DNA of 64,000 nt from NCBI GenBank assembly GCA_965235115.1, contig OZ249436.1, positions 30,258,001-30,322,000 of the forward strand, given 5' to 3'. A program made the position numbers and the translations under genes. This document shows, one piece after another, positions 11,823 through 62,127 of this stretch (position 1 is its first letter; each line of letters opens with the position of its first letter). The notes under the pieces are model-generated. The model was given only the letters and a program-made list of their open reading frames with translations. It was not told the DNA's origin and ran no database searches. This DNA is from Laetmonice hystrix. Taxonomy: Eukaryota.

Positions 11823-13416
11823 TAGGAAAATGACTAGAGCGCCATAGACTCGCTTCAGACCATGTGACAACCCCCGTTTTCATAGTGATGACGTCATGCG
11901 TTCCCGTAATGGCGCATTCGTTTTGCTTCCGGTGACACCCCAATATCGGAATGATAGAGGCGCGGTTTCGGCAGTGTGTCAACGAGTTATATCGCTTTTG
12001 TTGCGCTATAGTTATACCACTTCGGTAGCACTACAATATCGCTTGCCATCACACTTGTTGGTGTGTCAACGGTTTCAACACCAACAATATAGATTCTAGT
12101 CATTTTCCTGCTGATACACCGAAATTATCCCGCTATAAGGTGTTGCGCTATGAACATATAGCGGCATCAGACCACCTCAGGAGCAGGAATTTCTTATTAC
12201 GCTATGGTTGCGCTTTCGTTTCATATCGGGCGTGATACACCAAACATTTGATAACGCAATAACTTTTTGTATCGCCTTGAGAGCGCTATAAAATACCGTT
12301 GACACACCAACAAGTGTGATGGCAAGCGATATTGTAGTGCTAGCGAAGCGGTATAAACCACAGCGCAACAAAAGCGATATAACTCTCGAACCCGTTGACA
12401 CTGCCAATTATCGAAACCGCGCCCCTATCATTCCAATATTGGTGTGTCACCTATCGAAAGTTATATCGCTTTTGTTGCGCTATAGTTTATACTACTTCGG
12501 TAGCACCACAATATCGCCTGCCATCACACTTGTTGTGTCAACGTATTTTGTCTCATTATTAGACATCACTTTGAAGGCGTAATTTTCTCATATCTTGTTC
12601 GTGCGGAATAAAGTGTGTAGAGCACTACTGTTGCGTTGGCAATGTCCCTGGGCCCATGACCACTATTTTGTTTGGCATTATGTTGGAGGACGGGTTGTAA
12701 CATTTTTATGAGCTAGAACATCTCCGCCAGATGCTGGGAAATAGCGTTTTTGGCCTTCCAATTTAAAAAGTTTTCCCTGCGGGAGCCTCCCAGACCTCCC
12801 TCCCCCGTGCCTGAACGGGTCGCTGCACTCTCAGCCCCCCCCCCCCCCCCACTTCTTCAGAGCTTTCGACGCCCATGAGTAAAAGAAGTGTGCACTTCCT
12901 CGACCTAACGATATTTGAAGGACATGGATTCTTATACCGTTGACACACCAACAAGTGTGATGGCAAGTGATATTGTAGTGCTACCGAAGCGGTGTAAACG
13001 ATAGCGCAACAAAAGCGATATAACTCTCGATCCCGTTGACACACTGCCAATTATATCGAAACCGCGCCGCTATCATTCCGATATTGGTGTGTCACCAGTA
13101 GCAAAACGAATGCGCCATTACGAGGGATATTATGGGAACGCATAACGTCATCACTATCGAAAGGGGGGTTGTCACGTGGTCTGAAGCGAGTCTATGGCGC
13201 TCTAGTCATTTTCCTGTTGATACACCGAAACTATTCCGCTATAAGGTGTTGCGCTATGAACATATAGCGGCATCAGACCACCTCAGGAGCAGGAATTTCT
13301 TATTGCGCTATCATTGCGCTATCGTTCCATATCGGGGGTGACACACCAACATTTTATAACGCAATAACTTTTTAGATCGGCTTGAGAGCGCTACAAAATC
13401 TCATTGTGTCAACGGT
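11823..13416. mobile_element. Cluster of one full (12936-13416) and several partial copies of a ~480-bp MITE with TIR ACCGTTGACACA
   Basis: accgttgacaca at 12936 and tgtgtcaacggt at 13405-13416; homologous pieces at ~11823-12073 (-), ~12094-12290 (+), ~12294-12450 (+), ~12455-12543 (-). Confidence 0.8.
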
Positions 13417-17862: not shown

Positions 17863-18074
17863 TCATCCCGTTACGTCACCTCACGCGGCACCTCACCGGG
17901 CACGTCACACGGCACCGCACCCGGCACGTCACATGACACCTCACGCGGCACCTCACCAGACAATTTACAAAATGTAATATTACATTTTGCGTTAGGCCTA
18001 CATTATAGCCGCAAAATGTAATATCGACGCAAAATGTAATATCATTTTGAACGATGACCTTTAAATGAAAGGGG

Positions 18075-19540
18075 TGTGACTTGAGTGATGTCGGGGAGTG
18101 ATGTGAGCAATGTTGTGGGGGAGTGGGAGATAGAGTGATGTGGGGAGTGATGTGGGGGATGTGGGGGAGTGACGTAAGTGATGTGGCGAGTGAGTGATGT
18201 GGGGAGTGAGTGATGTGGGGAGTGACGTGAGTGATGTGGCGAGTGAGTGATGTGGGGAGTGAGTGATGTGGCGAGTGAGTGATGTGGGGAGTGAGTGATG
18301 TGGGGGAGTGACGTGAGTGATGTGGCGAGTGAGTGATGTGGGGAGTGAGTGATGTGGGGGAGTGACGTGAGTGATGTGGGGAGTGAGTGAGTGATGTGGG
18401 GGAGTGACGTGAGTGATGTGGGGAGTGAGTGAGTGATGTGGGGGAGTGACGTGAGTGATGTGGGGAGTGAGTGAGTGATGTGGGGGAGTGACGTGAGTGA
18501 TGTGGGGAGTGAGTGAGTGATGTGGGGGAGTGACGTGAGTGATGTGGGGAGTGAGTGATGTGGGGGAGTGACGTGAGTGATGTGGGGAGTGAGTGATGTG
18601 GGGAGTGAGTGATGTGGGGGAGTGACGTGAGTGATGTGGGGAGTGAGTGAGTGATGTGGGGGAGTGACGTGAGTGATGTGGGGAGTGACGTGAGTGATGT
18701 GGGGAGTGACGTGAGTGATGTGGGGAGTGAGTGAGTGATGTGGGGGAGTGACGTGAGTGATGTGGGGAGTGAGTGAGTGATGTGGGGGAGTGACGTGAGT
18801 GATGTGGGGAGTGAGTGATGTGGGGGAGTGACGTGAGTGATGTGGGGAGTGAGTGATGTGGGGAGTGAGTGATGTGGGGGAGTGACGTGAGTGATGTGGG
18901 GAGTGAGTGAGTGATGTGGGGGAGTGACGTGAGTGATGTGGGGAGTGATGTGGGGAGTGACGTGAGTGATGTGGGGAGTGAGTGAGTGATGTGGGGGAGT
19001 GACGTGAGTGATGTGGGGAGTGAGTGATGTGGGGGAGTGACGTGAGTGATGTGGCGGGTGAGTGATGTGGGGAGTGAAGTAGGCGATGTGGGGAGTGAGT
19101 GATGTGGGGGAGTGACGTGAGTGATGTGGGGAGTGACGTGAGTGATGTGGGAGTGACGTGGGTGATGTGGGGAGTGAGTGATGTGGGGAGTGACGTGAGT
19201 GATGTGGGGAGTGACGTTAGTGATGTGGGGAGTGAGTGATGTGGGGAGTGACGTTAGTGATGTGGGGAGTGAGTGATGTGGGGAGTGACGTTAGTGATGT
19301 GGGGAGTGAGTGATGTGGGGGAGTGACGTGAGTGATGTGGGGAGTGAGTGAGTGATGTGGGGAGTGAGTGATGTGGGGGAGTGATGTGAGTGATGTGGGG
19401 AGTGACGTGAGTGATGTAGGGAGTGAGTGAGTGATGTGGGGAGTGAGTGATGTGGGGGAGTGATGTGAGTGATGTGGGGAGTGACGTGAGTGATGTGGGG
19501 GAGTGATGTGGGGGAGTGATGTGAGTGATGTGGGGGCGTG
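18075..19540 (+). repeat. G/T-rich compound minisatellite built from gagtgatgtgggg / gagtgacgt / gagt units
   Basis: ~1.45 kb of short reiterated units, very C-poor on the + strand. Confidence 0.97.
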
Positions 19541-33269: not shown

Positions 33270-33443
33270 CAGTATGTCGTAATTACGACAAAGCTATGTC
33301 GTAATTACGACATACATGTATGTAGCTTTGCCGTTATTATGACTTAGTATGTTGTTATTACGACATAGCTATGACGTTATTACGACTTATTATGTCGTTA
33401 TTACGACATAGCCATTTCGTCAGTATGATTTAGTATGTCGTTA
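33270..33443. repeat. Tandem ~21-22 bp palindromic unit (tatgtcgtaattacgacata), ~8 copies
   Basis: Direct reading; abuts the 52-bp satellite. Confidence 0.85.
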
Positions 33444-33880
33444 TTTGCTCCAGTCTGAGGCCAGTCAATACCTGTAGAGAACCCTCACTGTAGTGTTTGC
33501 TCGAGTATAAGGCCGGTCAATAGGCCTACATGTAGGGAGCACTCACTGTAGTGTTTGCTCCAGTCTGAGGACTATCAATACATGTAGAGAGCCCTCACGG
33601 TAGTGTTTGCTCGAGTATAATTAAGGCCAGTCAATATATGTAGAGAGCCCTCACTGTAGTGTTTGCTCCAACCCAAGGGTATTCAATACATGCAGGGACC
33701 CCCCATGGTATTGTTTGCTCGAGTGTAAGGCCAGTCACTACATGTAGGGAACCCTCACTGTAGTACACATGTATGTGCTTGCGTATAAGGCCGGACAGTA
33801 CATGTTGGGAGCCCTCACTGTAGTGTTTGCTCGAGTATAAGGCCAGTTAGTCCATGTGGGCAGTCTGAGGCCAGTCAATG
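33443..33880 (-). repeat. 52-bp satellite, ~8 copies, reverse orientation relative to 53084-54955
   Basis: ccctcactgtagtgtttgctcgagtataaggccagtcaatacatgtag is the reverse complement of the 53-55 kb unit. Confidence 0.93.
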
Positions 33881-42199: not shown

Positions 42200-42541
42200 C
42201 TCTGTGACTATAGACGTGAATGGTGCAGTATATTCATGCCCCTGACATGGTGAGTTGTCTGGTAGACACCTGTCTATATCTTCTGTACCATTGCCAAATA
42301 TGGCACTGGAGTTGCCAGGGCCCGAGACAAAATATGGTGAGCTACTTGGGAAAACCGTGCTGTTTGTGTCATTGTTTGAGCTGCTGAATGCACATGTCCA
42401 TGAAGATTTGCTCGATGCAAAGAGTGATATCAGCATGGCCCATGCTGCTGGAGTTTCAAATGCACTCACGAGGAGAAAAACACGCACTTGAAATGGACCA
42501 AAGCTACCGATCTCATCCAGCACTTCTTCAAATTCAGACAT
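42200..42541 (-). CDS. SLC22 transporter coding exon 1 (MSEFEEVLDEIGSFGPFQ...FTSIVTE)
   Basis: ATG at 42541; family N-terminus FxxxLxxIGxFGxFQ; Cys- and N-glycosylation-site-rich loop; SIVTE|W across GTAAGT donor; joined CDS 1692 nt. Confidence 0.94.
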
Positions 42542-44282: not shown

Positions 44283-44689
44283 CAGGGGGGAAAATCAAAG
44301 GTTTTAGGAACTAGGGGCCGGTTTTACTAAAGGTCCTTATTTAAGGACGTCGCTAATTTAACATAGAAGTGAATGGTTGCTAGGTCGTTATTTTCCACCT
44401 AGCAACCCATTCACTTCTATGTTAAATTAGCGACGTCCTTAAATAAGAACCTTTAGTAAAACCGGCCCCAGATCTAGCCACCCGGGCTAGTAAAGTAAAA
44501 AATCAACTAGCCCAGATGAAAATTTACTAGCCCACATGATGAAAATGTCAGCCCCAGTCAGACCCGGTAAGTAGGCCTATCCCCAGAATATGTTACTCGC
44601 TAACCGGGCATGTTTTCTGTGAATGTCTAGTCGCCCGAGCTCTAATTCTGTCGCCTCAGTTGACCGGTCGACTCCAAATGCCACCCCTG
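44283..44689. mobile_element. MITE with CAGGGG...CCCCTG ends, interrupted by a palindromic MITE
   Basis: Exact 6-bp flanking duplication caaatg; actagccc repeats as in 41821-42168. Confidence 0.65.
44315..44468. mobile_element. Near-perfect palindromic MITE (PIF/Harbinger-like) nested in the 44283-44689 element
   Basis: ~70-bp arms gggccggttttactaaagg...tgctaggt / acctagca...cctttagtaaaaccggccc with ~2 differences. Confidence 0.88.
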
Positions 44690-45376: not shown

Positions 45377-47146
45377 ACCCTTACACAGGAGAGTTCTACA
45401 TCACGAGCGCCACCTGTTGAACAACGTTTCTGAAGGTGCTACCATCTGCTGGTGACGAAATGAAGGAGGATTTGGCTTGGGCAGATCAATTTCTGTTTTT
45501 TTTTCTTTCTGTCTTTTTTCACATTCTCTAACACGATTTTTTTTCGACGTAAGCCTATATTTTTGATATTATGATGTAATTTAAACTTATTTGAGATGTG
45601 TTCCAATCCAGTTATCTCTGGAAACCGAAACCAAAAGATCTCTGGACTGCCAGGGCCGGATCCAGCTAGCCTAGGCCATGATTCTTTTTTTTTTTTTTTT
45701 TTTGGGGGGGGGGGGGGGCACAGTGTGTATAGGTGGATGAATGGATCCATAAAGCTACCTGACATGGGCAAGGCCAAGGGTCACTCAGTAGGGCCTATAG
45801 GGGGAAAATTTCGGGGGGCTAGCTGTGCCCCCCCCCCCCTAAATCCGCCACTGACTGCAGCACATAAAACACAACGTTTTCTCGCCTGTTGGTCTAATAG
45901 GCCTATAGATTCTAGGCCCTAACAGATAAAGAATTATAACTATAAGTTTTAAAGCTCTCTTTTCCTTTGATCGCGGCATGCTCCGCCCTGAATTTGTGGG
46001 TCTGTTTTAGCCTAGGGCCCGTGACCATTTGTTTTGAGTCTGATAACCCGTAAGCCTCCTGAAGCCAGAAACTTTTTTTGATAGGCCTAGCCGGCAATCT
46101 TTTACCTGCTGGGATGGCGTTCCTCATCGTGTGATATGACGTAAAAAGGCTGGTTTAGACCATAGATCTATAGTCCGTCAGCTGACCTTCGGCCGATCAT
46201 CATCATCAGATATAAAAGTTTCTGGCTTCAGGAAGGGTGTCTTGTATAGGGAAGTTAGGTTTCACTTGGAACCAAAAGGTCCTGTACGGGGGAGAAGGGT
46301 TTCTTGTAGGAAAGTTAGGTTCCACGTGGAACCCAAGGGTTCTATAAGCCTAAAAGGGTTCCTATTATGAAGGTAAAGTTCCACATTGAACATAGATGTT
46401 CTTTAGGCCCTGATACTTTATTGAGTCAGACGAAGGTTGTTCGATCTCAAACTGCGCATGATCGCCCTAGGCGAGCATGCGCAGCAGGACTGCTCTCCAG
46501 TTTGGGAGGAACTAAAAACTGACGCACCTGTTGCCTTGATCGATTTGGAAGGCAGCGAATTACGTTAATTGACAGCTTTTTAAGCAAAATATGTTAGAAC
46601 ATAGACGCTATAGGAATTAAGCCTACCGATGTCAGGGGACATATCAGGGTGGATACGGATCTGGGCAGCCGTGGGTTTCGGCCGCCTGCATTCGTCCCAC
46701 TCGGATTCGTGTGATGTTGACGGAGGTCATGGCCCCTGAGGCCCGGCGCCACTCTGACTCCGACCGCGAGCAATGGCAGCTAAAATAGTGTCAGCATGGT
46801 CAGCACAGACCTGCTGCGTTTAGTTGTGACTGTGACTGTGGGACTGACCCCCGTCAATTTGCCACCCGCCTCGGCTGCCTTTAGCCTAGTATAGCCTAGC
46901 CCTGGCATGCAATAGATTAGCCCTGGAACGTCACTTCCGGCCAGCCCAATAGCAACAAATGGCTGCGCTGCTGAAGCGATTTTGACACGGTTGTCATGTT
47001 CAATATATATGACTTCTTGGAATAGGGGGACATTTATTTCCAACCACTACTCTGAAAGGTGAGTATATAGAGGCCTTGCAGCTGTCCAAATGTGATTTTT
47101 GACTGGACTTTAATTTAAGGATCTTGACACTTCTGACGACTGCAGA

Positions 47147-47617
47147 GGGGCTGTCCATAAATGACGTCATGCCTTTTTGGGCCATTTTTGACCCCCTCCC
47201 CCCTATGTCATGTGCCAGACCCCAGACCCCCTAAAAAAATTATGTCATGTGTCCAGTAACCCCCCCCCCCCCCCGAAGTACAGTCTACAGATACATAAAA
47301 TAGTTATTCAGAATAGTAAATATGTGTTTAACATCACATTAGGCACTCAGAATGCCACCTGTAGATTGCTTTATTTTTAATATCTATTTTAATACTATAG
47401 ATTTCCAAGAGAGGAGATTATTTTAATTATTTTTACTTTTAAAATAGAGACTTCAATACCAAGTGGCTTGAGAGCCACTAACCTAGAGTGGCTAAACTAA
47501 AAAATTAAGACATGACGTCATACATGATCTGACCCCCCCCCTCCCCCTTGTCATAGCTTGTCATAAAATCCCCCCCCCCCTCCCCCCTTTGCCATGACGT
47601 CATTTATGGACGACCAC
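47147..47617. mobile_element. MITE with 3-bp target duplication (PIF/Harbinger-like)
   Basis: TIR ggggctgtccataaatgacgtcatg / catgacgtcatttatggacgaccac; AGA on both sides. Confidence 0.8.
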
Positions 47618-47660
47618 AGAGAAACTGCTTAGGCCTAGTCTGATAAGCATTAGGGCCTAT

Positions 47661-47745
47661 TTAACCCTTTCACTGCGCATAGATCTACCCCGCAGTGCGG
47701 TGTAGACGTCTTAAAACGCGTATACACCGCACTGCGGTGTCCTGC
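47661..47745 (+). mobile_element. Orphan piggyBac-like terminus
   Basis: TTAA-ccctttcactgcg followed by internal hairpin ccgcagtgcggtgta / tacaccgcactgcgg; no partner end seen. Confidence 0.45.
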
Positions 47746-47849
47746 CACTCTAAATAACAACGTGTCGAATTAACGCGTGAAAGTGTTACTTTTGTAAAAG
47801 TAGGTGCCTCGTCTCAAGCTCACGGTTCTCACATCCCCAGATGATGCCC

Positions 47850-50800
47850 CAGGGTGTGACTAAATACCGGAATCCCCCGGAATCCCTTGGAATTTACCGG
47901 AATCCCCCGGAATCTACAGGAATCCCCCGGAATCTACCGGAATCCCCCGGAATCTACCGGAATCTACCGGAATCCCCCCGGCTTTGGGCTCGGAAGGCCC
48001 CAGAGTGTCCCTGGAGCACATTGGAATCCGCCGGACTTTGCCGGATTTGACACAATTCGAGAAAAGGGCAAGTGACTAAATACCGGAATCCCCCTGTATC
48101 TCTCTAATTTACCCCAAAATGTACCGGAATCTCCCCGGCTTTGGGCTCGGAAGGCCCCAGAGTGTCACTGGAGCACATTGGAATCCGCCGGACTTTGCCG
48201 GATTTGACACAATTCGAGAAAAGGGCAATTGACTAAATACCGGAATCCCCCTGTATCTCTCTAATTTACCCCAAAATGTACCGGAATCCCCCCGGCTTTG
48301 GGCTCGGAAGGCCCCAGAGTGTCCCTGGAGCACATTGGAATCCGCCGGACTTTGCCGGATTTGACACAATTCGAGAAAAGGGCAAGTGACTAAATACCGG
48401 AATCCCCCTGTATCTCTCTAATTTACCCCAAAATGTACCGGAATCTCCCCGGCTTTGGGCTCGGAAGGCCCCAGATTCTCACTGGAGCACATTGGAATCC
48501 GCCGGACTTTGCCGGATTTGACACAATTCGAGAAAAGGCAAAATGACTAAATACCGGAATCCCCCTGTATCTCTCTAATTTACCCCAAAATGTACCGGAA
48601 TCTCCCCGGCTTTGGGCTCGGAAGGCCCCAGAGTGTCCCTGGAGCACATTGGAATCCGCCGGACTTTGCCGGATTTGACACAATTCGAGAAAAGGGCAAG
48701 TGCCTAAATACCGGAATCCCCCTGTATCTCTCTAATTTACCCCAAAATGTACCGGAATCCCCCCGGCTTTGGGCTCGGAAGGCCCCAGAATGTCCCTGGA
48801 GCACATTGGAATCCGCCGGACTTTGCCGGATTTGACACAATTCGAGAAAAGGGCAAGTGACTAAATACCGGAATCCCCCTGTATCTCTCTAATTTACCCC
48901 AAAATGTACCGGAATCCCCCCGGCTTTGGGCTCGGAAGGCCCCAGAGTGTCCCTGGAGCACATTGGAATCCGCCGGACTTTGCCGGATTTGACACAATTC
49001 GAGAAAAGGGCAAGTGACTAAATACCGGAATCCCCCTGTATCTCTCTAATTTACCCCAAAATGTACCGGAATCCCCCCGGCTTTGGGCTCGGAAGGCCCC
49101 AGAGTGTCCCTGGAGCACATTGGAATCCGCCGGACTTTGCCGGATTTGACACAATTCGAGAAAAGGGCAAGTGACTAAATACCGGAATCCCCCTGTATCT
49201 CTCTAATTTACCCCAAAATGTACCGGAATCCCCCCGGCTTTGGGCTCGGAAGGCCCCAGAGTGTCCCTGGAGCACATTGGAATCCGCCGGACTTTGCCGG
49301 ATTTGACACAATTCGAGAAAAGGGCAAGTGACTAAATACCGGAATCCCCCTGTATCTCTCTAATTTACCCCAAAATGTACCGGAATCTCCCCGGCTTTGG
49401 GCTCGGAAGGCCCCAGATTCTCACTGGAGCACATTGGAATCCGCCGGACTTTGCCGGATTTGACACAATTCGAGAAAAGGCAAAATGACTAAATACCGGA
49501 ATCCCCCTGTATCTCTCTAATTTACCCCAAAATGTACCGGAATCTCCCCGGCTTTGGGCTCGGAAGGCCCCAGAGTGTCCCTGGAGCACATTGGAATCCG
49601 CCGGACTTTGCCGGATTTGACACAATTCGAGAAAAGGGCAAGTGCCTAAATACCGGAATCCCCCTGTATCTCTCTAATTTACCCCAAAATGTACCGGAAT
49701 CCCCCCGGCTTTGGGCTCGGAAGGCCCCAGAATGTCCCTGGAGCACATTGGAATCCGCCGGACTTTGCCGGATTTGACACAATTCGAGAAAAGGGCAAGT
49801 GACTAAATACCGGAATCCCCCTGTATCTCTCTAATTTACCCCAAAATGTACCGGAATCCCCCCGGCTTTGGGCTCGGAAGGCCCCAGAGTGTCCCTGGAG
49901 CACATTGGAATCCGCCGGACTTTGCCGGATTTGACACAATTCGAGAAAAGGGCAAGTGACTAAATACCGGAATCCCCCTGTATCTCTCTAATTTACCCCA
50001 AAATGTACCGGAATCCCCCCGGCTTTGGGCTCGGAAGGCCCCAGAGTGTCCCTGGAGCACATTGGAATCCGCCGGACTTTGCCGGATTTGACACAATTCG
50101 AGAAAAGGGCAAGTGACTAAATACCGGAATCCCCCTGTATCTCTCTAATTTACCCCAAAATGTACCGGAATCCCCCCGGCTTTGGGCTCGGAAGGCCCCA
50201 GAGTGTCCCTGGAGCACATTGGAATCCGCCGGACTTTGCCGGATTTGACACAATTCGAGAAAAGGGCAAGTGACTAAATACCGGAATCACTCTGGGGCCT
50301 TCCGAGCCCAAAGCCGGGGAGATTCCGGTACATTTTGGGGTAAATTAGAGAGATACAGGGGGATTCCGGTATTTAGTCACTTGCCCTTTTCTCGAATTGT
50401 GTCAAATCCGGCAAAGTCCGGCGGATTCCAATGTGCTCCAGGGACACTCTGGGGCCTTCCGAGCCCAAAGCCGGGGGGATTCCGGTACATTTTGGGGTAA
50501 GTTAGAGAGATACAGGGGGATTCCGGTATTTAGTCACTTGCCCTTTTCTCGAATTGTGTCAAATCCGGCAAAGTCCGGCGGATTCCAATGTGCTCCAGGG
50601 ACAGTCTGGGGCCTTCCGAGCCCAAAGCCGGGGGGATTCCGGTACATTTTGGGGTAAATTAGAGAGATACAGGGGGATTCCGGTATTTAGTCAATTGCCC
50701 TTTTCTCGAATTGTGTCAAATCCGGCAAAGTCCGGCGGATTCCAATGTGCTCCAGTGACACTCTGGGGCCTTCCGAGCCCAAAGCCGGGGAGATTCCGGT

Positions 50801-53083
50801 ACATTTTGGGGTAAATTAGAGAGATACAGGGGGATTCCGGTATTTAGTCACTTGCCCTTTTCTCGAATTGTGTCAAATCCGGCAAAGTCCGGCGGATTCC
50901 AATGTGCTCCAGGGACACTCTGGGGCCTTCCGAGCCCAAAGCCGGGGAGATTCCGGTACATTTTGGGGTAAATTAGAGAGATACAGGGGGATTCCGGTAT
51001 TTAGTCACTTGCCCTTTTCTCGAATTGTGTCAAATCCGGCAAAGTCCGGCGGATTCCAATGTGCTCCAGTGAGAATCTGGGGCCTTCCGAGCCCAAAGCC
51101 GGGGAGATTCCGGTACATTTTGGGGTAAATTAGAGAGATACAGGGGGATTCCGGTATTTAGTCACTTGCCCTTTTCTCGAATTGTGTCAAATCCGGCAAA
51201 GTCCGGCGGATTCCAATGTGCTCCAGGGACACTCTGGGGCCTTCCGAGCCCAAAGCCGGGGAGATTCCGGTACATTTTGGGGTAAATTAGAGAGATACAG
51301 GGGGATTCCGGTATTTAGTCACTTGCCCTTTTCTCGAATTGTGTCAAATCCGGCAAAGTCCGGCGGATTCCAATGTGCTCCAGGGACACTCTGGGGCCTT
51401 CCGAGCCCAAAGCCGGGGGGATTCCGGTACATTTTGGGGTAAATTAGAGAGATACAGGGGGATTCCGGTATTTAGTCACTTGCCCTTTTCTCGAATTGTG
51501 TCAAATCCGGCAAAGTCCGGCGGATTCCAATGTGCTCCAGGGACACTCTGGGGCCTTCCGAGCCCAAAGCCGGGGGGATTCCGGTACATTTTGGGGTAAA
51601 TTAGAGAGATACAGGGGGATTCCGGTATTTAGTCACTTGCCCTTTTCTCGAATTGTGTCAAATCCGGCAAAGTCCGGCGGATTCCAATGTGCTCCAGCGA
51701 CACTCTGGGGCCTTCCGAGCCCAAAGCCGGGGGGATTCCGGTACATTTTGGGGTAAGTTAGAGAGATACAGGGGGATTCCGGTATTTAGTCACTTGCCCT
51801 TTTTTCGAATTGTGTCAAATCTGGCAAAGTCCGGCGGATTCCAATGTGCTCCAGGGACACTCTGGGGCCTTCCGAGCCCAAAGCCGGGGGGATTCCGGTA
51901 CATTTTGGGGTAAATTAGAGAGATACAGGGGGATTCCGGTATTTAGTCACTTGCCCTTTTCTCGAATTGTGTCAAATCCGGCAAAGTCCGGCGGAATCTA
52001 ATGTGCTCCAGGGACATTCTGGGGCCTTCCGAGCCCAAAGCCGGGGGGATTCCGGTACATTTTGGGGTAAATTAGAGAGATACAGGGGGATTCCGGTATT
52101 TAGTCATTTTGCCTTTTCTCGAATTGTGTCAAATCCGGCAAAGTCCGGCGGATTCCAATGTGCTCCAGGGATACTCTGGGCCCTTCCGAGCCCAAAGCCG
52201 GGGGGATTCCGGTACATTTTGGGGTAAATTAGAGAGATACAGGGGATTCCGGTATTTAGTCATTTTGCCTTTTCTCGAATTGTGTCAAATCCGGCAAAGT
52301 CCGGCGGATTCCAATGTGCTCCAGGGATACTCTGGGCCCTTCCGAGCCCAAAGCCGGGGGGATTCCGGTACATTTTGGGGTAAATTAGAGAGATACAGGG
52401 GGATTCCGGTATTTAGTCATTTTGCCTTTTCTCGAATTGTGTCAAATCCGGCAAAGTCCGGCGGATTCCAATGTGCTCCAGCGATACTCTGGGCCCTTCC
52501 GAGCCCAAAGCCGGGGGGATTCTGGTACATTTTGGGGTAAATTAGAGAGATACAGGGGGATTCCGGTATTTAGTCATTTTGCCTTTTCTCGAATTGTGTC
52601 AAATCCGGCAAAGTCCGGCGGATTCCAATGTGCCCCAGGGACACTCTGGGGCCTTCCGAGCCCAAAGCCGGGGGGATTCCGGTACATTTTGGGGTAAATT
52701 AGAGAGATACAGGGGGATTCCGGTATTTAGTCATTTGCCCTTTTCTCGAATTGTGTCAAATCCGGCAAAGTCCGGCGGATTCCAATGTGCTCCAGGGATA
52801 CTTTGGGCCCTTCCGAGCCCAAAGCCGGGGGGATTCCGGTACATTTTGGGGTAAATTAGAGAGATACAGGGGGATTCCGGTATTTAGTCATTTGCCCTTT
52901 TCTCGAATTGTGTCAAATCCGGCAAAGTCCGGCGGATTCCAATGTGCTCCAGGGATACTTTGGGCCCTTCTGAGCCCATATTCGAGGGGATTCCGGTAGA
53001 TTCCGGGGGATTCCGGTAGATTCCGGGGGATTCCGGGGGATTCCGGGGGATTCCGGGGGATTCCGGTATTTAGTCACACCCCT
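47850..53083. mobile_element. ~5.2 kb foldback-type element: opposed tandem arrays of a 157-bp unit with matching termini
   Basis: Left gggtgtgactaaataccggaatccccc + 10-bp ccggaatc(cc/ta) repeats, ~15 units on +; orientation switch at ~50288; ~17 units on -; 10-bp repeats and gggggattccggtatttagtcacaccc at right. Confidence 0.85.
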
Positions 53084-55170
53084 TATACTCGAGCAAATAC
53101 TACAGCGAGGACTCACCACATGTACTGACTACAGTGAGGGCTCTCTACATGTATTGGCTGGCCTTAGACTGGAGCAAACACTACAGTGAAGGCCCCCCAC
53201 ATGTATTGACTGCCCTTGGGCTGGAACAAACACTTCAGTGAGGGCTCCCTACATGTATTGACTGCCTTTCGGCTGGAGCAAACACTAGGGCCTACAGTGA
53301 GGGCTGCCAACATGGACTGACTGGCCTTATACTCGAGCAAACACTACAGTGAGGGCTCCCTACATGTATTGACTGGCCTTATTGTCGAGTAAACACTACA
53401 GTACGTGAGGGCTCTCTCCATGTAATGACTGATCTTGGACTGGAGCAAACACTAGAGTGAGGGCTGCCCACATGTATTGAGTGGCGTTATACTCGAACAA
53501 ACACTACAGTGAGGACTCCAACATGTACTGTCTGGCCTTATACTCGAGCAAACACTCCAGGGAGGGCTCCCCACATGTACTGACTGGTCTTATACTCGAG
53601 CAAACGCTACAGTGAGGGCTCTCTACATGTATTGGCTGGCTTGAGACTGAAGCAAACACTACAGTGACGGCCCCCCACATGTATTGACTGGCCTTATACT
53701 GTAGCAAACACTACAGTGAGGGCACTCCACATGTATTGACTGGCCTTATTGTCGAGCAAACACTACAGTGAGGGCTCCCTACATGTATTGACTGGCCTTA
53801 TACTCGAGCAAACACTACAGTGGGGGCATTCTACATGTATTGACCGGCCTTATTGTCGAGGAAACACAACAGTGAAGGCTCTCTAAATGTATTGAGTGGC
53901 GTCAGACTGGAACAAACACTACAGTGAGGGTTGCCCACATGGACTTAATGGTAAGCGAGCAAACACTACAGTGAGGGCTCCCCACATGGACTGTCTGGTC
54001 TTATACTTGAGTAAACACTACAGGGAGGGCTTCCCACATGTACTGACTGGTCTTATACTCGAGCAAACGCTACGGTGAGGGCTCTCTACATGTATTGGCT
54101 GGCCTTAGACTAGAGCAAACACTACAGTGAGGGCCCCCACATGTATTGACTGGCCTTATACTGGTGCAAACACTACAGTGAGGGCACTCCACATGTATTG
54201 ACTAGCCTTACTGTCGAGCAAACACTACAGTAAGGGCTCCCTACATGTATTGACTGGCCTTATACGCTAGCATACACTACAGTGTGGGCTCTCTACATGT
54301 ATTGGCTGGCCTTAGACCGGAGCAAACACTACAGTGAAGGCCCCCTACATGCATTGACTGCCCTTGGGCTGGAGCAAACACTACAGTGAGGGTTCCCTAC
54401 ATGTATTGACTGCCCTTCGGCTGGAGCAAACACCACAGTGAGGGCTGCCCACATGGACTGACTGGCCTTATACTCGAGCAAACACTACAGTGAGGGCTCC
54501 CAACATGTACTGTCTGGCCTTATACTCGAGCAAACACTACAGGGAGGGCTCCCCACATGTACTGACTGGCCTTAGACTGGAGCAAACACTACAGTGAGGG
54601 CCCCCGACATGTATTGACTGGCCTTATACTGGAGCAAACGCTACAATGAGGACACTCTACATGTATTGACTGGCCTCATTGTCGAGCAAACACTACAGTG
54701 AGGGCTCCCTCCATGTAATGACTGGCCTTGGGCTGGAGCAAACAGTACAGTAAGGGCTCCCTACATGTACTGAGTGGCGTCATACTCGAGCAAACACTAC
54801 AGTGAATGCTCTTTGGATGTATTGGCTGACCTTAGACTGGAGCAAACACTGCAGTGAAGGCTTCCTACATGAATTGCCTGCCCTTGGGCTGGAGCAAGCA
54901 CTACAGTGAGGGCTCCCTACATGTATTGACTGCCCTTCGGCTGGGGTAAACACCTTATGCTATGCGAATGGGTGCAGTAATCTTGGGTCCGGGGTTCGAT
55001 TCCTGTAGAGGACTATACAACTTTTCTCTTTAGGGACATTGTCAAAGTAATTGGGTTACCCCTGATGCCCGTGCATTTCAAAAGAAAAATACAGCGAGGG
55101 CTCCCTCCATGTAATGACTGGCCTTGGGCTGGAGCAAAGAGTACAGTGAGGGCTCCCTACATGTATTAAT
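53084..55170 (+). repeat. 52-bp satellite, ~36 diverged copies (interrupted ~54955-55090)
   Basis: Consensus tatactcgagcaaacactacagtgagggctccctacatgtattgactggcct. Confidence 0.96.
54958..55060 (+). mobile_element. Possible tRNA-derived SINE fragment within the 52-bp satellite
   Basis: Pol III B-box GGTTCGATTCC at ~54993-55003; A-box weak, no cloverleaf. Confidence 0.35.
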
Positions 55171-55854
55171 ATCAAACATTATGAAGGAATCACAATTTGT
55201 TTTCGCTTCAGTATATTATAGACCTACATTGTATTGCAGTGTATTGCCAGCTGAATCACGTATGCCATCAGATTTAATAGAGGCCTGTGTTATTGTGTAG
55301 GCCTACTATATAAACTGTATAATCTGTCATCGTAAAGTTTCTCTTTGTTATTGCGAAAGTATTGCCAGAATGTGTACATTCTTTATCGTTGTCATAGGCC
55401 GTATTCTTCAATCGTCGTGTTATGTTCTCCCCTCCCGGTCTTCGTTATCTTCACCCCTTCCTTGCCATTAGCTTTGGGGTTCTCCCACTTGGTTGAGTCT
55501 TTCTAATTGTTTTAGTTATAGGCCTACTTTTGTCATTTTCAGATATGGGCCTCTTTTTCCCACATAAACTGTCCAGGATTAATTTGGCTTCAAATGACAC
55601 TTCAGATTCTTTCCTTTAGTCGATGGAGTTCAAATATTTGTTTCAATTGCCTCGACTTCTTTGTTATGCAGAGAGCTCGTTATAACTGCAGCATGACCGA
55701 TCTTTCTTTGGTCACTGCTTTGGGTTGAGACATTGAAAATTTAATCAGATCGACTGATAGGCACGGCGTAAGGACTTATCAGGGAAAAAATCCACGATTT
55801 TAATTCTAAAGAATCTGTGATGGGAAAGGGCCTCTAGCCAAAATAATAATTTGT

Positions 55855-56110
55855 TCTACGGACAAATCTGAATATATGCGGACATTATCTAGCCGAATTC
55901 TGCGGACAAATCTGAATTTGCGGACATATCTAGCCGAATTCTTCGAACAAATATGAATTTCCGGACAAATCTACTCGTGTTTATGCGGACATATCTCAAC
56001 TTCTTGACATAACCCGCTGATTTAGATGGACACAACTACATCCGCAGACATAGGGCCTATATCTAGCCGTGACTTTTTCACTGGACAAAATTAATCTAGC
56101 CGCTTAGCCA
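55855..56110 (+). repeat. Short degenerate tandem repeats (gcggacaaatctgaatt / gcggacatatctagccg)
   Basis: Direct reading; probably subterminal repeats of a MITE. Confidence 0.7.
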
Positions 56111-59948: not shown

Positions 59949-61502
59949 TACGTGTACATAGACAAGGCTTGGATGGTTTTTATTGTAGGCCTACCACATA
60001 ATTTACGTCCTCAGGCGGGATCATTTTACAAATATTGAAAGTATCATATCGGTCTCACTTGTTTTAAAATAAAGTCTGATCTGAACAAATTCCAACATGA
60101 CAACGGACAGGGGGAAAAATTGTGGCAAGCTCACTGAAACAATATACTGAAAGTTCTTGAGTTATCCTGAAGTATTTCCACAATCACATAGGCCTATTTT
60201 TGATCTACACACCGAAATCGGAAACTACAGCCGTGAATATAATGAAAGGGCTGCTACAGTTTACGATCTTAGGATGGAACTATACCTCAGGTGTTATAAT
60301 ATAACTGCTACCGCATCCGTTTTCCTCAACTTAGTTTTTACATAGGCCTACATTGGAATGTCTCAGAAATGTCGCAATGAACAAATCCATGACTGATAAA
60401 TTCTTAAATAAATATAGCATCGAGAATATATTTGTAGATACAATTGATATAGACAGTGATTTAAAGACAAACCAGGTGTGCCGGTAAACTTTTATAGATA
60501 ACAAATCGTGTCCTAACCTCTTGCTCCGCATCTCCGGCCTCGACATGGCGAGCGGTGTCACCATTTGGCGTTTAGAGATCCATCATAGAAACAAGAAACC
60601 GTCTTCCCGAGTGGCGTCAGTGGTGTGCCTCATTGTTGGTTACCCACCCCTAGGCGTTCCCTTTCATTTAATTTCTATACGAGCGTTACTGTCCCATGAA
60701 AGATTTATTATTTTCGAAATATGTGTCACTGGCACGAAATCCAAGACCGATGCATCAATCCACTATATTCGCTTCACCGCTGACCCAGAAGTTGTGCCCG
60801 CTGCACCGGCCTGCCGCTTTGTGCGCACCTCTGTGATCGGTGTCCAAACTCCCATTGATTGCATAACGTTATTAAAGACGTAGGGCCGACGTCGGCACGT
60901 GAAATTGATTATCTCTGTGATCAACAACCAGTTGGCAACATACAGGCGGCGCGTTGCCCTTCGGTAATCTCGCTTTCTCTCTCTGTCTCTGTCTCTCTAC
61001 CTGTTTATGTCTGTCTGTCTATAGCTGTCGGTCTGTCTGTCTGCTGTCTGTCCGTCTCTCTGTTCCATCTCCCTATCGCTCTCGTGGAGAAAAGAAACTT
61101 CTACATTATAGGCCTACCTTTTAGTTTCATCAGAACAATAACTTTTTCGCTCTTTCTTCTAAATCTATATTTGCGAAGTCGATGCGATTTGGTCATCACC
61201 ATTTTATTTTCCTGTGACTTTGAGATTAAAGGATGGAACCCATTTCCAGAAACAGGGAAGGCCATGCAGAGTGAAATTAAATCAAAAACCGTATGGCCAT
61301 CGCAAGGACAACCGCCTAAGTAGTGCATAAACCTGCATGGCCTGTATGGCGCCAAATATCCCATCTGGATGAAAATTGCCCAGAAGTTGTGAAACGTTTT
61401 ATCTTCAACCCCATGATATAGGCCTACACGGTATACGACAAATCGTCGGGTTAAAAACTGTCGTGATCGTCGTAAGTCGTAAATTGTGCCTTTCATACCT
61501 TA

Positions 61503-61699
61503 AGCCGCTTTCACATGCACACGGTTTGCGGTGTGCGGCATGCGGCGTGCGTTTTTGCAAAAATGGAACAACTGAAAATAGATATAACCGTTCACATGTC
61601 TCCGGTTTGCGGCGTGCGGCGATTTACATTGGCTACATTATTAACAAAAACGCACGCCGCATGCCGCACGCCGCACATCGTATGCATGTGAAAGCGGCT
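61503..61699. mobile_element. Palindromic MITE with TTA target duplication (PIF/Harbinger-like)
   Basis: TIR agccgctttcacatgca / tgcatgtgaaagcggct; TTA both sides. Confidence 0.88.
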
Positions 61700-62127
61700 T
61701 TACCCCAGTCCCAGTAGGAGATACAACTTACAACATGACACGACCAGGCTGCGACTGTAAATCGCAGGCAATCTCAGAAAAGTCCTGCCACAAGTCCTGG
61801 GTGGTCGTGGTTAGTCTTGAATATTCGCACAACCAAAATCAGTCGCAGAGAGGTTGTGGATCATGTGCAACAACCTGGCTGCGACTGGCGACTGAAGAAG
61901 TCGCAGCCTAGTCGTCACTTGTGCGACGGTCGTGCGATGGTCTTGGGACAAGACTGTGGTGGTTGCACATTGTTATGACTGATCGTAGGATTATCCTGTC
62001 GTACAACAATTACACGACTTTCCCCGACCAGTCTCAGGACTTGTTTTGCGACTAGAGCTGATAGCACGACCAGTCGCATCGTCATGCGAGACAAGTCGTG
62101 CGACGGGCCCTTACCACTCGCACGTAA

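Follow-up and report, generated by a model that had tools for sequence, protein, structure and literature searches.

The DNA analysed here, called the window throughout, is a stretch of 64,000 nucleotides from Laetmonice hystrix (GenBank assembly GCA_965235115.1, contig OZ249436.1, forward-strand positions 30,258,001 to 30,322,000). The subject of the analysis is a repeat-built element of 5,230 nt (47852-53081) that stands between two other repeats, near the start of an SLC22-type transporter gene (Table 1). Tandem Repeats Finder resolves the element into two opposed arrays of a 157-bp unit, one with 14.8 copies at 98% matches (47961-50288) and the other with 17.3 copies at 97% (50288-53002), in agreement with the ~15 and ~17 units counted in an earlier, sequence-only reading of this DNA; the same program finds a block of 10-bp repeats at either end, with 11.2 copies on the left and 8.1 on the right. 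That reading had also placed a spacer-free change of orientation near 50288, and we find it there, with no foreign DNA at the joint. The inner terminal sequence, said to recur through the units, does so: a 20-mer from it matches 34 times in the window, always within the element (16 times on the plus strand and 18 on the minus strand; 21 matches exact and 13 with one mismatch, against none expected from 100 shuffles), and the motif CCGGAATC is present in 79 copies in the element versus a single copy in the rest of the window.

Table 1. Coordinates of the element, its parts and its immediate surroundings, as positions in the window.
Feature	Position	Strand	Description
SLC22-type organic cation transporter, first coding exon	42200-42541	-	context, outside the element
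Left flank	47661-47849	+	an end of a different small repeat (TTAA followed by CCC); other end not in the window
Left terminal inverted repeat	47852-47886	+	35 nt identical to the right end; starts GGG
Left outer module	47852-48065	+	214 nt: intact tip, 10-bp block (47867-47978), ~100 nt in common with the monomer
Left arm	48066-50288	+	14 inner 157-nt modules and 25 nt belonging to a 15th
Six-unit duplication, left arm	48230-50287	+	942 nt; 48230-49345 identical to 49172-50287
Orientation switch	50288-50289	.	two truncated monomers abut; one base fits either arm; no foreign spacer
Right arm	50289-52897	-	98 nt plus 16 inner modules (156-157 nt); inner 11 units of left-arm (A) type
Outer six right-arm units	52037-52977	-	B-type variants at unit positions 13, 22, 83/84 and 87
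Right outer module	52898-53081	-	184 nt; shorter 10-bp block (52986-53066), variants of its own
Right terminal 35 nt	53047-53081	-	identical to the left end
Right flank	53082-54950	+	unrelated 52-bp tandem repeat, ~35 copies, 80% matches; directly abuts the right terminus

The arms, of 2.4 and 2.8 kb, are long, inverted and internally repetitive, as terminal inverted repeats (TIRs) are in foldback-type elements; the middle domain that separates the arms of such elements is absent, and the two arrays simply abut. In the longest hairpin register, arms of 1,958 nt are 98% complementary and lie 82 nt apart; the DNA fold predicted at the junction (-182.7 kcal/mol, z -27) merely restates this inverted repeat and is no evidence of extrusion in cells. 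The longest stop-free frame of the element, at 154 codons, is repeat-derived, and no Rfam family was found within 46000-56000: the element is without coding capacity.

Both ends had been described as a matching 27-bp sequence opening with CAGGG and read inward. A shared inverted terminus is indeed present, and it is longer than described, being identical for 35 nt, but the CAGGG belongs to the left end only: the bases just outside the shared part differ (CA on the left, AG on the right, read inward), so that the right end reads AGGGG.

Each arm is made of modules that resemble the end of the element. Relative to the outer modules, the inner ones have an altered tip (GGGT to GGGCAA) and a degenerate 10-bp block, and are alike over the last ~100 nt. 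Since the alignment between outer and inner modules extends over their length, the monomer is a copy of the element's whole end, which bears out the earlier suggestion that the repeat is an amplified end module. The left arm holds a six-unit duplication, which is seen as a mean unit distance of 0.38 at lag 6 versus 2.6-3.8 at other lags; its exact 1,116-nt repeat extends up to the junction, and with the duplication still exact, turnover of this array is recent. The arms are not mirror images of one another, at most two identical unit pairs being found in any register, and we could therefore rule out a read folded back on itself as the source of the inverted structure. Two unit types, A and B, are present, and the B type makes up 12-41% of monomer depth across sequencing runs versus 16-26% of the 31 full units at the locus; given this similar share genome-wide and at the locus, the types are family variants and not errors.

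The question of whether the element has relatives elsewhere was addressed with contigs from four of five listed sequencing runs (X1, X2, X3 and X5), compared with 47610-48120. Runs X1 to X3 represent one sample, which may be the source of the assembly, and X5 is an independent marine metagenome; findings on loose ends, where a contig leaves the element, rest on 19 of 88 rows, and the counts that follow are those among the rows listed. The terminus is joined to unlike flanks in at least 9, 12 and 4 contigs of X1, X2 and X3, respectively, with breaks before 47852 in at least 5, 6 and 4 contigs and before 47853 in at least 4 and 6 contigs of X1 and X2; these flanks have a median of 130-255 letters and an agreement of ~0.5. 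Because long unlike flanks abut the terminus at a narrowly defined place, the end is both dispersed and sharp, as the terminus of a foldback family would be, here in three runs of one sample. The earlier description of a dispersed, non-coding element with foldback anatomy thus stands.

Relative to the unique flank, summed contig depth was 150-2,400x for the head of the element and 15,000-66,000x for the monomer, figures which are not copy numbers; the ratio of monomer to head, 27-59, is of the same order as the 15-17 units per end at the locus. These depth ratios suggest that the genome holds hundreds of ends, each with tens of monomers. An identical loose end of 27-28 letters, the first 10 of which are not in the window, follows the monomer behind 48056 in both X2 and X3, and may mark the inner arm boundary in copies that retain a middle domain. 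One X3 contig (record 17), at a single-copy depth of 14.8, follows 47610-47849 with 9 other letters, 22 gap letters and 4 indels and then continues for ~58 letters without fit, the side being taken from the record coordinates; it is likely an empty allele. The alternative allele in X3 also carries an 8-letter insertion at 47722, which contains TA-GGCC. In X5 we found the monomer with one difference, together with a head-to-tail joint at depth 4; a further X5 record (record 25), which had 4 differences over 34 letters at depth 3, was disregarded for its shortness. No RNA run was listed as holding the sequence, which does not bear on expression. Searches of metagenome contigs gave no match to the terminus or the monomer motif, and viral contigs gave none to the terminus.

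We favor, with a probability of roughly 0.55, the explanation that the element represents a dispersed family of non-autonomous foldback (long-TIR) DNA transposons, this copy having arms made of its own end module in tandem and having lost its middle. The distinct left and right outer modules, which correctly face inward, also speak for it. Several observations weigh on the other side. No target-site duplication of 5 nt or more was found among the 154 end-position pairs tried at the element locus, where 11 pairs gave duplications of 2-4 nt that were mostly C runs eating into the terminus, and the two flanks are mutually unrelated repeats. None of the five joints listed switches strand, a weak negative given that contigs drop rare forms, even though deletion joints of low depth (14-64) are among those listed; the junction at 50288 is therefore neither confirmed nor a common form of the family. 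The single contig that links the left flank to the terminus, from X1 at a depth of 24.5, enters the element by only 26 letters, where a bridging contig was taken to need 31. To these we add the origin of X1 to X3 in a single sample that may have given rise to the assembly itself, and the view of loose ends through 19 of 88 rows, without the letters of the presumed empty allele. The missing duplication is likely a secondary matter, arising from a deletion beside one end or from an imprecise end.

The favored history would begin with an old tandem duplication of the end, which seeded the array, with unequal exchange and slippage then altering the number of repeat copies. The repeated motif would serve as a binding site for a transposase supplied in trans, as has been shown for the tandem repeats in the TIRs of Galileo (PMC3688188; this and the other publications cited here are represented by parts of their text), and cutting would be confined to the outermost, intact tips. 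Deletion or template-switch repair likely removed the middle domain, leaving two truncated monomers abutting, and exchange between the arms likely mixed the A and B unit types. Our best guess at a superfamily is Mutator/Rehavkus-like. The 10-bp blocks are repeats of the kind expected of Mutator/MULE (Rehavkus) elements, but the 8-10-bp target-site duplication of that group was not found at the element locus. As the duplication test failed at the sole locus tested, and no transposase is known, we have filed the element in neither Mutator nor hAT.

The absence of a duplication and the unrelated flanks would also be explained if the element were an in vivo hybrid, in which ectopic recombination or deletion had fused a left arm and a right arm from different insertions, with the DNA between two nearby copies gone. 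The left small repeat and the right 52-bp array both look cut at the element ends, as such a history would have it, and there is a precedent in Galileo of Drosophila mojavensis, where 12 of 170 copies are chimeric with flanks that do not match (PMC3573991). However, the outer modules at the locus, one of the left type and one of the right, are opposed as they would be in a complete element, the local mix of A and B units matches the mix genome-wide, and the arms meet out of register at the junction, in contrast to the product of a simple homologous crossover. On these grounds we regard a hybrid as possible, though unlikely.

An error of assembly, whether a misjoin or a chimeric read that fused arrays from different loci or haplotypes at 50288, is improbable. 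It would be in keeping with the lack of both a strand-switching joint among those listed from three contig sets and a duplicated target, and with the exact 1,116-nt repeat that reaches the junction; yet a self-foldback read is excluded by arms that do not mirror each other, the unit variants are common to the genome-wide pool, and genuine dyads in which truncated monomers meet without a spacer are known from other animals, TfSat01 being an example (PMC12581902). The same satellite, from Tribolium freemani, is the model for a further alternative, to which we give little credence: that the element belongs to a satellite with a fixed start module and no transposase, which would spread by circles or rolling-circle copying and form spacer-free dyads. 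Opposed subarrays joined without a spacer by truncated monomers are the commonest form of TfSat01, at 71.8% of arrays (PMC12581902), and both the missing duplication and the great excess of monomers over ends in Laetmonice would be accommodated. Against it, both array ends stop at the same base of an identical 35-nt tip, one that differs from the tips of the inner modules, and the breaks to unlike flanks elsewhere in the family fall at the same tip position; moreover, the inversion points of TfSat01 are conserved in many copies (PMC12581902), whereas none of this kind is among the five joints listed here.

The weakest of the alternatives is a hAT-derived element with CAGGG ends, 8-bp duplications and a decayed right end, hAT being the affiliation hinted at in the sequence-only reading. 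Starts of the form YAGGG are common in hAT elements, which are expected to have short TIRs beginning with YA at both ends and 8-bp duplications, and the left end of our element fits the motif. We nevertheless judge this derivation very improbable and do not follow the hint, as the right end has AGGGG in place of CAGGG, the breaks that are best supported elsewhere in the family (among the rows listed) fall before 47852 or 47853 and not before 47850, and no 8-bp duplication was found.

Tandem arrays within an inverted-repeat element are present in FB of D. melanogaster, with 10-bp outer and longer inner repeats. The foldback design is not new, and satellite arrays in inverted ends are known, in the parts of the literature cited here, from Rehavkus of Tribolium and Tetris of Drosophila. 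Both inverted termini of Rehavkus foldback transposons hold subterminal repeats, which number from a few to 50 or extend over more than 11 kb, and these transposons have been linked to the Tribolium satellites TfSat15, TfSat23, TfSat25 and TfSat06 (PMC12581902). The likeness to our element lies in these arrays within the inverted ends; the differences are that Rehavkus has a central part, whereas our element has no middle and no duplication that we could find, and that the monomer of our element is the whole end module including an altered tip, which the text cited does not describe for Rehavkus (PMC12581902). Tetris of D. virilis is a non-coding foldback element proposed to be Mutator-like, with ~220-bp tandem repeats in both TIRs; its repeat has 37 bp (~80%) in common with the outer domain, from which it was proposed to derive (PMC4079207). 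Both elements are non-coding foldbacks with TIR tandem repeats related to the outer end; however, Tetris has 8-10-bp duplications, a long unique flanking domain, inner and middle domains and few repeats per arm (PMC4079207), whereas the arms of our element are almost wholly repeat and most of its monomer can be matched to the outer module. In its workings the element resembles a Rehavkus or Tetris foldback, and its satellite is its own end.

Other systems share single traits with it. In Muta1, a type-2 foldback MULE from Aedes aegypti, nine 12-bp repeats come after a short terminal motif and resemble the 10-bp block, and there are many non-autonomous derivatives with variable repeat numbers; it differs in its 145-bp TIRs, its 8-9-bp duplications, its known transposase and the lack of a second-level array such as that of 157 bp (PMC5225508). 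Galileo, of the P superfamily, has long repetitive TIRs with internal tandem repeats of ~210 bp, variable in number, which hold secondary transposase-binding sites, and it includes copies with two TIRs and no transposase as well as chimeric copies without matching duplications; unlike our element, it makes 7-bp duplications and has no more than three repeats in each TIR, which lie some way inside the end (PMC3573991, PMC3688188). Xmix and Xstir of Xenopus likewise have tandem arrays riding in an inverted-repeat element, although the repeats of Xstir derive from internal sequence of a MITE (miniature inverted-repeat transposable element) (PMC12628747, PMC9659126). The macro-dyads of TfSat01 show the same opposed subarrays, joined by truncated monomers with nothing between, but this is a centromeric major satellite; its six inversion types are conserved and high-copy, and the text cited gives no description of transposon-like tips (PMC12581902). 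Four further papers (PMC6947457, PMC13553610, PMC12676858, PMC2872659) held nothing decisive for the element in the parts available. We found no description of a monomer that is a whole transposon end, tip included, in a literature covered without a search aimed exactly there and with subscription papers mostly outside; the supplements to the Tribolium study (PMC12581902, Figs S14 and S16) may show one.

The flanks of the element are themselves repetitive. Pieces of the small repeat on the left, which we take to be piggyBac-like from its TTAA-CCC start, are multi-copy (depth 240-380), and the family continues differently after 47846. The 52-bp repeat on the right is also present at 33444-33870 in the opposite orientation (7-8 copies; 71-80% matches over both arrays), and its occurrence at two sites in opposite orientations marks it as a second dispersed repeat family; an inversion linking the arrays at 33444-33870 and 53082 was considered and set aside, no matching break being evident by eye. 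A short non-repeat segment at 54955-55090 interrupts the 52-bp array; it holds a B-box-like motif and may be a fragment of a short interspersed element (SINE). We also rejected a larger composite ending at 55064, where an 11-mer would comprise a 5-nt end and a 6-nt duplication, as only the five terminal bases match and the 52-bp repeat runs on. Elsewhere in the window, small palindromic or inverted-repeat MITE-like elements are found at 12290-12549, 33272-33315, 44314-44469 and 61502-61700, a further MITE-like inverted repeat was seen by eye at 47147-47610, and a strongly G-skewed 21/42-bp minisatellite of ~37 copies occupies 18071-19535.

The SLC22-type exon matches two of 126 candidate proteins, the named one being, with 45% identity, an organic cation transporter from the annelid Lamellibrachia satsuma, and Pfam recognized Sugar_tr on one of four exon translations, that of another exon of the same gene. 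The start of this gene had been placed ~5 kb from the element, a distance that held and can be refined: the SLC22-like ATG, on the minus strand, has its position at 42541, and its distance to 47852 is 5,311 nt. Between the two, the bin 46400-46799 is richer in CpG (observed/expected 0.94 versus 0.72 for the window), an acceptor-like AG is found at 42691-42690 and a donor-like GT at 46626, and a motif that we take to be ETS-like lies at 46940. These sequence features hint, weakly, at a putative non-coding first exon and promoter of the SLC22 gene at 46400-46960, ~0.9 kb from the left end of the element.

Beyond the favored foldback transposon lies a bolder version, which we consider unlikely as a whole: that the family is a transposable satellite, most of the 157-bp repeats of the animal riding in the arms of hundreds of foldback elements, with the monomers as disarmed spare ends that have an altered tip and have kept their binding motifs. 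Such a family would move as middle-less palindromes of kilobase size, without target-site duplications, and the copy described here would have inserted recently, at ~0.9 kb from the SLC22 promoter, and be heterozygous. If true, movement without duplications would point to an unusual cutting chemistry. As foldback elements that breed satellites in their arms have already been published from flies and beetles, the gain is otherwise incremental. What the element does offer is a clear example in which a transposon end can be recognized in the satellite monomer, with the origin of the repeat readable directly from the alignment of its modules. Should the likely empty allele hold up, there would in addition be a 5-kb near-palindrome segregating beside a transporter gene in Laetmonice hystrix, by which the stability of palindromes, their silencing and their effects on expression could be tested directly.

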